A stretch of 64,000 nt of DNA from Eledone cirrhosa (GCA_964016885.1 OZ024740.1:228470001-228534000), one strand, 5' to 3'; shown: positions 1-25,895, counted from the first letter of the stretch. Notes: generated by a model not told the origin, from the sequence alone. Numbers and translations are program-made.

Positions 1-1964
1 GCGATACATCATAGAGAGGGTTGGGAACGAACCCGGCTTTGGTGGGGCCCTGATAAATTTAGATCAGTCTAAAGCGTTCGATAGGGTGGACCATGGTTAC
101 CTGGATGCGGTGCTAGCGGCGGCTGGGTTCGGACCCGTTTTCAGGGGCTGGATCACTGCCATGCACAGCAGCCGCATCTGCTCTAGAGTCAAGGTGAACG
201 GCTACCTTTCGGAGCCGTTCGAAATCACCCGCTCCATCCGACAGGGGTGCCCTCTCTCCTCCCTTCTGTATGTATTGACTCTCGAGCCATTACTGCGGAA
301 GTTGGAGTTGTTGCAGGGCATCCCTTTGGAACCGGGATTGCGCAAAGCGGTGTCGGCCTACGCCGATGACGTAACAGTAATGGTGTCGACCGCCTCGGAA
401 ATCGAGGCAATCGGCACCTTACTAGAGGAGTACGAAAGGTTGACAGGGGCTAAGCTGAACCGGGACAAGTCAGTCGCTTTGCAACTCGGCGAGTGGAGGG
501 GCAAAGCGATGTCGTGCGACGGTATCGTCGGACGGTGGACGGAGGGCCCGGTGAAGTTGCTTGGGGTCTGGTTCGGACCGGACCTCCAGGTGGAGAAAAA
601 CTGGGGTGAGGTGACGAATAGGGTGTTTGCACTGACCCAGAAGTGGGCCGAGTGCAAACTATCCCTAAAAGGTCGGGCGGAGGTGGCGAACGCTTACATA
701 GCGTCCGTCATCTATTACCGCTTGACTGTCGTGCCTTGCCCGGGTGAGATCCTCGCCAAAATGGAGCGCGCCCTCTTTTATTTCCTTTGGAAGAAGAGGT
801 CTCCTCTAGTGAGGAGATCCATCTGCTGTCAACACCCTTTGAAAGGAGGGCTGGGGATGCCGTGGCTAAAAATGCGTAAACACGCATTGAGGCTAAGGCA
901 CCTCCACGTATTCCTCACCGGTCAACCGGTGTGGGCCCCGTTTGTGAGGCGAGCCTTCCCGAGGCTCGTCTCGCTCACCGAGCTACAGTCCTGGGTGAAG
1001 CAAAGACCGAGAAAACTGGGCGACTGGCACACCGAGTGTGCCCAGGCGCTCACGGCTCTCTGGCAGGCGGACCCGGCTATCGACGGAGACTCCACCTCGT
1101 CATTCTATAGAGGGCTGGTGGTTAGCGGGTGCGACGACGCCCTCGGAGAAGCCCTAGGCATGGAGGAGGACGAACTGGCCAGTCTATTCGGTAGGACTTT
1201 CGGCCCGGGACCTATGGACAACTTCCAGAAGTCCTTGGCCTGGCAGTGCTACCGAGGGGCTCTGCCCGTTCGGGATAAGCTCTACAGACACGGGCGCCCG
1301 GGTAGGGACCCCTCGAAAAAGATCTGTCCCAGATGCGTGCGCGACGAGGAAACCGTCGCGCACGCATTGATGCACTGCCCGCGCGTTGCCGATCTGTGGG
1401 GCTATGTCGAACGACTGCTGTCACGGGTGGGACCAATTAGGTTGACCACCGAGTCCATTGTAACGATCAAGCCGCCTCCCCCCTTCAAAAATGAAGGAGA
1501 GGCGGTCTTCCTCTGTGTAATAGCCATGGTAAAAGAGGCTATATGGTGGACGCGTCTGAAAGGGCTGAGGTCGGACACCTTTCTCTCCGGCCAACAACTG
1601 GTCCTTTTCTTCCGATACCATTTCGGAAGAAGGATCAGGATGGAGAGAGAGGTGCTCCACTCCAGCCAGTTTTATGAAAGGTGGGTGAAAGTTGCGAGAA
1701 TGGCCCGTGTGAATGGGCCTTCTCTCTACCTCAGCCTGTAGGTGGAACAGAAAGAAGGGAGCACCCTCTCTTTGTGCTCCCGTGGAGAAGGGTCGCACGC
1801 TTTTTTTCGGGGGTGTATGTGACCCCAAAACGATCCCTCCCTATTGAGGACCTTCTTGTTATTATTTTGTTTGTTATATTTTTCTTACTCGATTTTTATG
1901 TAAACTCCCCCCACCCATGTACATGTCCCTTTCTTTTGTGCCCTAGTGGCAAATAAACAGAAAT
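1..1964 (+). mobile_element. Tx1/L1-clade non-LTR retrotransposon, copy 1 (3' part, 5' portion outside window)
   Basis: Near-identical to 17070-19032. Carries RT motifs, the C-terminal zinc finger and a 3' UTR ending AATAAA (1952-1957) then CAGAAAT directly into satellite. Confidence 0.95.
2..1741 (+). CDS. ORF2 (reverse transcriptase + C-terminal zinc finger), 5'-partial
   Basis: Frame is open from the window start. Motifs DQSKAFD, RQGCPLS, YADD, KLLGV, CPRC-x8-H-x4-C. The track start at 86 (GTG) is not the real start. Confidence 0.93.
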   Translation, partial: RYIIERVGNEPGFGGALINLDQSKAFDRVDHGYLDAVLAAAGFGPVFRGWITAMHSSRICSRVKVNGYLSEPFEITRSIRQGCPLSSLLYVLTLEPLLRKLELLQGIPLEPGLRKAVSAYADDVTVMVSTASEIEAIGTLLEEYERLTGAKLNRDKSVALQLGEWRGKAMSCDGIVGRWTEGPVKLLGVWFGPDLQVEKNWGEVTNRVFALTQKWAECKLSLKGRAEVANAYIASVIYYRLTVVPCPGEILAKMERALFYFLWKKRSPLVRRSICCQHPLKGGLGMPWLKMRKHALRLRHLHVFLTGQPVWAPFVRRAFPRLVSLTELQSWVKQRPRKLGDWHTECAQALTALWQADPAIDGDSTSSFYRGLVVSGCDDALGEALGMEEDELASLFGRTFGPGPMDNFQKSLAWQCYRGALPVRDKLYRHGRPGRDPSKKICPRCVRDEETVAHALMHCPRVADLWGYVERLLSRVGPIRLTTESIVTIKPPPPFKNEGEAVFLCVIAMVKEAIWWTRLKGLRSDTFLSGQQLVLFFRYHFGRRIRMEREVLHSSQFYERWVKVARMARVNGPSLYLSL

Positions 1965-25000: not shown

Positions 25001-25895
25001 GTATCTGTGTGTCTGTGTATCTGTGTATCTGTATCTGTGTGTCTGTGTGTCTGTGTATCTGTGTCTGTGTGTCTGTGTATCTGTGTGTCTGTGTGTCTGT
25101 GTATCTGTGTATCTGTGTATCTGTGTATCTGTGTGTCTGTGTATCTGTGTATCTGTGTATCTGTGTCTGTGTCTGTGTGTCTGTGTATCTGTGTGTCTGT
25201 GTGTCTGTGTGTCTGTGTATCTGTGTATCTGTGTATCTGTGTCTGTGTCTGTGTGTCTGTGTATCTGTGTGTCTGTGTATCTTTGTATCTGTGTGTCTGT
25301 GTGTCTGTGTGTCTGTGTATCTGTGTATATGTGTGTCTGTGTGTCTGTGTATCTGTGTATCTGTGTGTCTGTGTATCTGTGTGTCTGTGTATCTGTGTAT
25401 CTGTGTATCTGTGTGTCTGTGTATCTGTGTGTCTGTGTGTCTGTGTATCTGTGTATCTATGTGTCTGTGTATCTGTGTGTCTGTGTGTCTGTGTATCTGT
25501 GTCTGTGTATCTGTGTGTCTGTGTATCTGTGTATCTGTGTATCTGTGTGTCTGTGTGTCTGTGTATCTGTGTATCTGTATCTGTGTATCTGTGTGTCTGT
25601 GTATCTGTGTGTCTGTGTATCTGTGTGTCTGTGTATCTGTGTGTCTGTGTGTCTGTGTATCTGTGTGTCTGTGTGTCTGTGTATCTGTTTATCTGTGTGT
25701 CTGTGTATCTGTGTGTTTGTGTGTCTGTGTATCTGTGTGTCTGTGTATCTGTGTATCTGTGTCTGTGTATCTGTGTGTCTGTGTATCTCTGTGTCTGTGT
25801 GTCTGTGTGTCTGTGTATCTGTGTATCTGTGTATCTGTGTCTGTGTATCTGTGTGTCTGTGTGTCTTTGTGTCTGTGTATCTGTGTCTGTGTGTC
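19033..25895. repeat. Second block of the TCTGTGTR/TCTGTG satellite, ~6.9 kb
   Basis: Same units and same strand orientation as 1965-13409. Confidence 0.98.

Follow-up and report, generated by a model that had tools for sequence, protein, structure and literature searches.

The window, by which we mean the whole stretch of 64,000 nucleotides analysed here (G000:C1:228470001-228534000, in a genome of 3.0 Gb), was found to carry two same-strand copies of a LINE within satellite DNA. The locus extends to the left of the window and follows the order array, copy, array, copy, array, with ~26 kb of satellite in total. Copy 1 is represented in the window by its 3′ part (1..1964, plus strand), which comprises ORF2 up to the stop codon at 1739-1741 and then the 3′ UTR. 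Its 5′ end lies 3,653 bp to the left, in neighbouring DNA (G000:C1:228466348), and the copy is full length and intact at 5,617 bp. Copy 2 is complete within the window (13423..19032, plus strand; 5,610 bp, without poly(A)), and its positions 17070-19032 match window 1-1964. The initial annotation, which had treated copy 2 as the full copy, was therefore right about this copy, but copy 1 is full length too. It had also described two young copies with about 7 coding differences, and 7 substitutions, 4 of which alter a residue, were counted in the coding overlap; the 3′ UTRs differ by 3 substitutions and one 1-bp indel. Both window copies end AATAAACAGAAAT, lack poly(A) and enter the satellite on the same strand, as first described.

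Array 1 (1965..13409, plus strand), built from the units TCTGTGTA, TCTGTGTG and TCTGTG, measured 11,458 bp including the leader, and array 2 (19033..25900, plus strand), which terminates in an AGTCT motif, measured 6,869 bp, in agreement with the earlier figures of 11.4 and 6.9 kb. A third array of 7,767 bp (array 0; G000:C1:228458581-228466347) lies upstream of copy 1, outside the window, and AGTCT was seen only at the three array ends. Array 0 contains internal duplications that are almost perfect, with a 1,962-bp exact match at a 2.8-kb period, which could reflect very recent expansion or an assembly effect. A candidate 14-bp target-site duplication (TSD) flanks copy 2 (13396..13409, plus strand, with its partner at 19032-19045). 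The 14-mer behind the previously proposed 13-14 bp TSD is indeed present; however, it was counted 162 times in array 1 and a further 83 in array 2, and ~14% of array positions yield a match as long. The candidate is not distinguishable from chance inside the satellite, and it was dropped as proof of insertion. The locus sits ~52% of the way along a 443-Mb contig, surrounded by several multi-kb arrays, and is possibly pericentromeric (G000:C1:228.46-228.50 Mb). Two further arrays lie in the window, one of 14.5 kb with ~1,216 copies of a 12-bp unit (35493-49996) and one of 3.5 kb with a 28-bp unit and 97% matches (55257-58720). No ORF1 or ORF2 match was found near either of them, so large arrays can exist in this genome without the element. 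A short interspersed repeat with gagttcaaatccc and aaataaagtaccagt, which we take to resemble cephalopod SINEs, was present in several copies (26000-26240, 27600-27720 and 50400-50450). The character of the repeats tentatively suggests an octopod host.

Both reading frames of copy 2 are intact. ORF1 (13598..15349, plus strand) encodes 583 aa with one CCHC zinc knuckle, C-X2-C-X4-H-X4-C at residues ~295-310, for which the Pfam E value of 0.067 is weaker than the curated cut-off. ORF2 (15373..18810, plus strand; 1145 aa) encodes an APE endonuclease, a reverse transcriptase (YADD) and a C-terminal zinc motif, with the Pfam domains Exo_endo_phos, RVT_1 and zf-RVT, and its catalytic motifs NARG, E, GDWN, SDH and YADD are all present. 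When ORF2 was compared with PDB using phmmer, L1 ORF2 was the closest match (E 1e-50, residues 7-858), against an E value of 6e-18 for R2. With two ORFs, and an ORF2 nearer L1 than R2-type elements, the LINE belongs to the L1 group of non-LTR retrotransposons. A CCHC zinc knuckle in ORF1 is a feature of the Tx1 clade, to which Tx1L, Keno, Kibi and Koshi belong, and membership of this clade is plausible; homolog, cluster and atlas searches returned no named Tx1 reference. Many full-length ORF2 relatives have ~40% identity (P0002-P0045), and relatives of the LINE are present in contigs and RAD reads of other organisms. The fold of the 3′ UTR was not unusual (z −1.65), and the 11 weak Rfam matches in the 5′ region (13390-13700) included no ribozyme, a search that divergent ribozymes could escape. 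A hammerhead core was considered, as the 5′ end holds CUGAGGA, and was rejected: the motif is broken in other subfamilies, the downstream GAAA was not seen and the Rfam result was free of ribozymes.

The genomic distribution of the family was examined using an exact 25-mer of the LINE 3′ end, which gave 209 genome matches and none for the control. Flanks were taken from 60 of the first 100 listed 3′-end places, on chromosome contigs 1-4; copies in clusters that had already been sampled, the majority of additional members in other clusters and the places at the end of the list were set aside. We found that in the great majority of these 60 other loci the 3′ flank starts Y-T-G-T-C-T (T46/C12, T56, G58, T60, C57 and T60 at positions 1-6). 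At least three TCTG words were present in bases +7 to +46 at 39 of the loci, against 0.037% of background windows drawn from 20 arbitrary 10-kb stretches, only 200 kb in all; the available text of PMC4494074 asks for >20% of flanks in one repeat type. The opposite-strand word CAGA was missing at 58 of the 60 flanks, and orientation and register at the target were fixed across the sample. The flanks consist of pure (TCTG)n or of TCTG-based minisatellites whose unit differs by locus. About three quarters of the sampled copies (44/60) are full length. TSDs of 11-23 bp were clear in L144, L169, L171, L192 and L195; those at full-length copies were barely longer than in mismatched controls (median 10.5 versus 7). 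One copy, L148, lies in a non-target flank. These results uphold the earlier view of a sequence-targeting LINE.

The target is nevertheless not the one first proposed, namely the complex TCTGTGTR satellite with its 8/6-bp units. Recognition of this satellite by the endonuclease would fit the entry of both window copies into the same strand at a TATCTGTGT register, yet at least three TCTGTGTR units within 100 bp were found at just 3 of the 60 other 3′ flanks, contrary to the expectation that most copies would adjoin such arrays. A satellite 46-mer was confined to the window locus (34/34 matches), as were 1,361 of the 1,687 four-unit TCTGTGTR matches, and all 9 of the other TCTGTGTR loci inspected were without an adjoining LINE copy, an arrangement whose existence the initial annotation had asked about. 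We regard such recognition as hardly credible. The flanks do differ from TCTGTGTR, which the annotation had taken as the sign of a wrong reading, but they share a TCTG motif instead. Because few flanks are of the TCTGTGTR type, the satellite is confined to one locus and (TCTG)4 starts (5,363 in the genome) far outnumber the ~200 copies, the target is the short TRTCT/TCTG motif, and the TCTGTGTR satellite is one host among many. The other early proposal, that the satellite was born from the 3′ tail of the element, gains something from the YTGTCT that follows nearly every copy, part of which is probably element-encoded, and from LINE tails being a known source of microsatellites (PMC3812793, available text). 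Against it, 7.8 kb of satellite lie upstream of copy 1, repeat units vary by locus and are present on both sides of the copies, most (TCTG)4 starts are away from copies, and the two other multi-kb arrays of the window have no ORF match nearby. Birth from the tail is thus very improbable.

A sister family with intact copies was identified by protein search (89% ORF2 identity), and its 3′ 23-mer gave 1,974 matches, which may belong to two or more subfamilies. In the first 30 copies, the sister flank reads Y-W-T-A-T, with A in the first flank triplet in 30/30, followed by (TCTA)n or (TA)n. None of the 30 flanks was TCTG-rich, and TCTA totalled 90 occurrences versus 7 for TCTG. In the L1 endonuclease, the T192-S202 loop affects nicking preference (PMC1950540, available text). 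The loop aligned to it here (15937..15969, plus strand) differs from that of the TCTA-associated sister at 3 of 9 positions, a difference that is not significant (p about 0.07), and the loop as a basis for the target switch is a lead only. The window family, the sister and other relatives share sites, and related LINE families 71-89% alike (L235-L240, L223, L226, L233 and L234) were seen nested at the same TCTR tracts.

We then considered the 5′ junctions. A 13-nt leader in GTCT register (13410..13422, plus strand) is identical ahead of both window copies and is likely to be partly carried on the RNA; the initial annotation had made no mention of it. In all 44 full-length copies among the 60, the upstream flank ends in RTC(T/C). 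The 5′ end gave 103 matches, and among the 100 listed, GTCTGTCT was exact in 77 and changed by 1-2 bases in 23, as counted by eye. In 26 kb of the locus TCTGTCTG was found at just the two junctions and one internal spot; since it is nearly confined to junctions, the leader is distinct from the ordinary satellite. When 73 full copies were arranged in a tree, one leader variant was common to L272, L274 and L175, which lie on three chromosomes and differ by 1-2 sites, and L275 and L276, which are identical, likewise had a variant in common. The 5′ 2.4 kb is the same in L152 and L271, and both carry an unusual 16-nt leader that fits the surroundings of L271 and not the pure TCTG around L152. Because leader variants travel with near-identical copies between chromosomes, we infer that the RNA likely carries target repeats at its 5′ end. 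Leader sharing gave a permutation p of 0.03 for whole copies and 0.15 for the 5′ 1.5 kb alone, with the variant loci chosen on purpose, and the pattern of another family upstream gave 6 hits, 3 of which (L147, L168 and L186) were visibly real. The leader is predicted to pair with the first bases of the element in a 10-bp RNA hairpin (13411..13435, plus strand). Differences between subfamilies fall in the hairpin loop (UGAG, UCAG, UUU and CGAG; UCCG in the sister), and shuffled heads matched the hairpin strength in 2.1% and 0.1% of 5,000 trials. That the modelled hairpin might protect or define the 5′ end is a guess.

Copies of the family are often stacked. Among the 100 listed copies, 46 lay in 15 same-strand clusters of up to 9 copies, and 13 junctions were direct, with spacers of ≤34 nt. 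L144, a young, 5′-truncated copy with 99.7% identity, lies in the leader of the older L143, and its 12-bp TSD includes the first bases of L143, which is direct evidence at the level of sequence for insertion into a resident leader. Some cluster mates were sisters with 1-9 differences; therefore, local duplication also occurs. The longest stack, with nine head-to-tail copies, was seen at L064-L069 (G000:C3:358.73-358.78 Mb); there, copies 6 and 8 have a 78-bp in-frame ORF2 deletion in common and copies 5 and 7 are sisters, the arrangement of a duplicated dimer. The two window copies differ at 34-35 sites spread along the element, 21 of 34 being family-wide polymorphisms. Relative to the distance between them, 28 of 72 other copies were closer to copy 1 and 34 of 72 were closer to copy 2. 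They fell on opposite sides of the deepest split in a tree of 20 copies (UFBoot 100), although the deep split had a support of just 28-82 among 73 copies, which are mosaic. They also share one pair-private allele, which points to a degree of local exchange or common ancestry, as such sharing was found in only 7 of 899 pairs from different loci. Independent insertions followed by some local exchange would fit these comparisons best, and the earlier preference for independent insertions over a single duplication is supported by the number of differing sites between two non-sister copies.

Relations between the satellite blocks were also examined. Homology was detected between the first ~1 kb of array 1 and the final ~0.8 kb of array 0 (score 48, shuffles ≤20), and these two arrays have a rare TATTTG unit in common close to their ends. 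The longest exact matches were 214 bp between arrays 0 and 1 and 159 bp between arrays 1 and 2, with ≤143 and 135 bp in shuffles. A colinear 17-kb duplication was not seen. Elsewhere, a 1,149-bp spacer in the C3 cluster reproduces without change the tract lying upstream of the first element and begins at a target site, and a spacer in the C19 cluster contains exact 935- and 2,374-bp copies of its upstream tract. Satellite growth linked to the element is plausible on this evidence, and the earlier suggestion of such a link survives in altered form: the tail is not the source, while blocks between copies duplicate the block upstream. Such duplicates could have arisen by unequal crossover between copies that differ in position, by 5′ joining at a resident leader or through haplotypes falsely joined.

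Taking these data together, we consider it probable that the LINE is a young, intact L1-group (Tx1-like) family that inserts in one orientation at TGTCT/TCTG sites, and that the window holds two likely independent insertions in a locus-specific satellite. In the mechanism that we propose, the endonuclease would nick at a short TRTCT-type site, and the RNA 3′ end (...AGAAAU-UUGUCU) would pair with the target and prime reverse transcription without poly(A). The RNA would begin some 8-24 nt upstream, in the flanking repeat of the donor, and the cDNA end may anneal to GTCT at the target, leaving a fresh (GTCT)2-4 leader. This leader would be the landing site for the next copy, leading to stacks. 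Later, exchange of sequence between neighbours, or 5′ joining at the leader of a resident copy, would duplicate the intervening satellite, which slippage and unequal exchange could enlarge further. A bolder reading is that this is a self-priming, self-stacking lineage, with an RNA-borne 5′ target in a hairpin, a landing site rebuilt at each insertion, kilobase 'target-site duplications' that arise by 5′ joining at resident leaders and pump locus-specific satellites such as the ~26 kb here, and sisters, both active in one genome, retuned by one base (TCTG versus TCTA); we hold it to be rather doubtful.

Two further alternatives bear on the targeting and on the tandem arrangement. Targeting might depend chiefly on pairing of RNA with DNA at the two ends (UUGUCU at the 3′ end, the leader at the 5′ end), together with an endonuclease of loose specificity, so that the TCTG/TCTA switch would come from the RNA ends. 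The difference in terminal bases between the family and its sister corresponds exactly to that between their flanks, and the endonucleases are 89% identical. In the available texts, a flanking target on the RNA improves R2 integration (PMC6795142), and RNA-target pairing has been raised for L1 (PMC1950540). However, 3 of the 9 loop residues differ, and the leaderless, 5′-truncated L169, L192 and L144 are still at TRTCT sites with TSDs, which 3′ pairing alone could explain. We see this as possible, if on the less likely side. The tandem itself could go back to an old duplication at the locus, followed by gene conversion, or two haplotypes could have been joined in the assembly, in keeping with the identical 13-nt leader, the rare TATTTG unit that arrays 0 and 1 share close to their ends, the pair-private allele, and the sister copies and exact satellite duplicates in other clusters. 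This origin is unlikely, as sublineage-diagnostic differences extend over the whole element and the arrays are not colinear, as the lengths of their exact matches and of those in shuffles show. Two independent insertions at short TRTCT/TCTG sites remain the reading that we prefer.

Microsatellite-targeting APE LINEs are known from other hosts, including Kibi in (TC)n and Koshi in (TTC)n of teleosts and crocodilian Tx1 elements in (TTCC)n/(TTTC)n (PMC4494074 and PMC3812793, available texts). Like these, the present family is of the APE type, has two ORFs and inserts at a microsatellite motif, and by analogy it appears to work as Kibi and Koshi do. It differs from them in its (TCTG)n/TRTCT target, its sister at (TCTA)n/(TA)n and its host group, and neither an RNA-borne 5′ leader nor a target-complementary hairpin nor kilobase satellite duplication is mentioned in the available descriptions of these elements. 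Waldo at (ACAY)n and Mino at (AC)n, both of the R1 clade, and Dong at (TAA)n (PMC3812793, available text) also target microsatellites, including a tetranucleotide, but belong to different clades, the ORF2 described here being far nearer L1 than R2-type elements. In R2, a co-transcribed 28S flank on the RNA shapes the 5′ junction, and target sequence present at the 3′ terminus aids priming (PMC6795142, available text). The putative leader would resemble this in placing target-derived RNA sequence at the 5′ junction; R2, however, has a restriction-like endonuclease and an HDV-like ribozyme, whereas the present element has an APE endonuclease and a 5′ end that matched no ribozyme family. Tandem insertion around a TSD has been described for SINEU-3 and Utopia (PMC4494074 and PMC4640811, available texts), in which sequential insertion at one target likewise gives head-to-tail copies, but the stacks here contain up to 9 full-length autonomous copies with spacers of 6 bp to 11 kb. 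Octopus repeat annotations list recently active L1-Tx1 elements, with 13 families and 421 insertions in O. vulgaris (PMC13282606 and PMC8967140, available texts); the recent activity is alike, and no target or array was described in these texts. 'TCTG' had no hits in one supplement of PMC13282606, and Tx1 was not mentioned in PMC9115989. The literature surveyed contained no Tx1 family described as targeting (TCTG)n or (TCTA)n, and Repbase or Kojima and Fujiwara 2004 may contain one. The novelty would lie in the target, the putative RNA-borne leader with its hairpin, the long self-stacks and the sister shifted by one base.

How APE-type LINEs choose microsatellite targets has been described as poorly understood (PMC3812793, available text). 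With ORF2 89% identical and flanks that differ by one base, these two intact families of recent activity make the roles of the endonuclease loop and of RNA pairing testable by swaps. A LINE that dispenses with poly(A), inserts into non-genic repeats and is full length in about three quarters of the copies sampled is likewise relevant for targeted insertion. If the kilobase duplications at stacked copies are true, they would show in concrete terms how a transposon can enlarge satellites; if they are not real, what stands is a well-documented new target for a known type of element. Two minor observations concern individual copies. Along their length, L271 and other young copies are mosaics pieced together from different sublineages, which implies template switching or gene conversion. 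At L155 and L158, a 3′ fragment (42 and 447 bp, respectively) and a spacer precede a full copy, with TCTG absent upstream, an arrangement that a tandem donor may have produced by read-through or 5′ transduction, or that a later deletion may have left.
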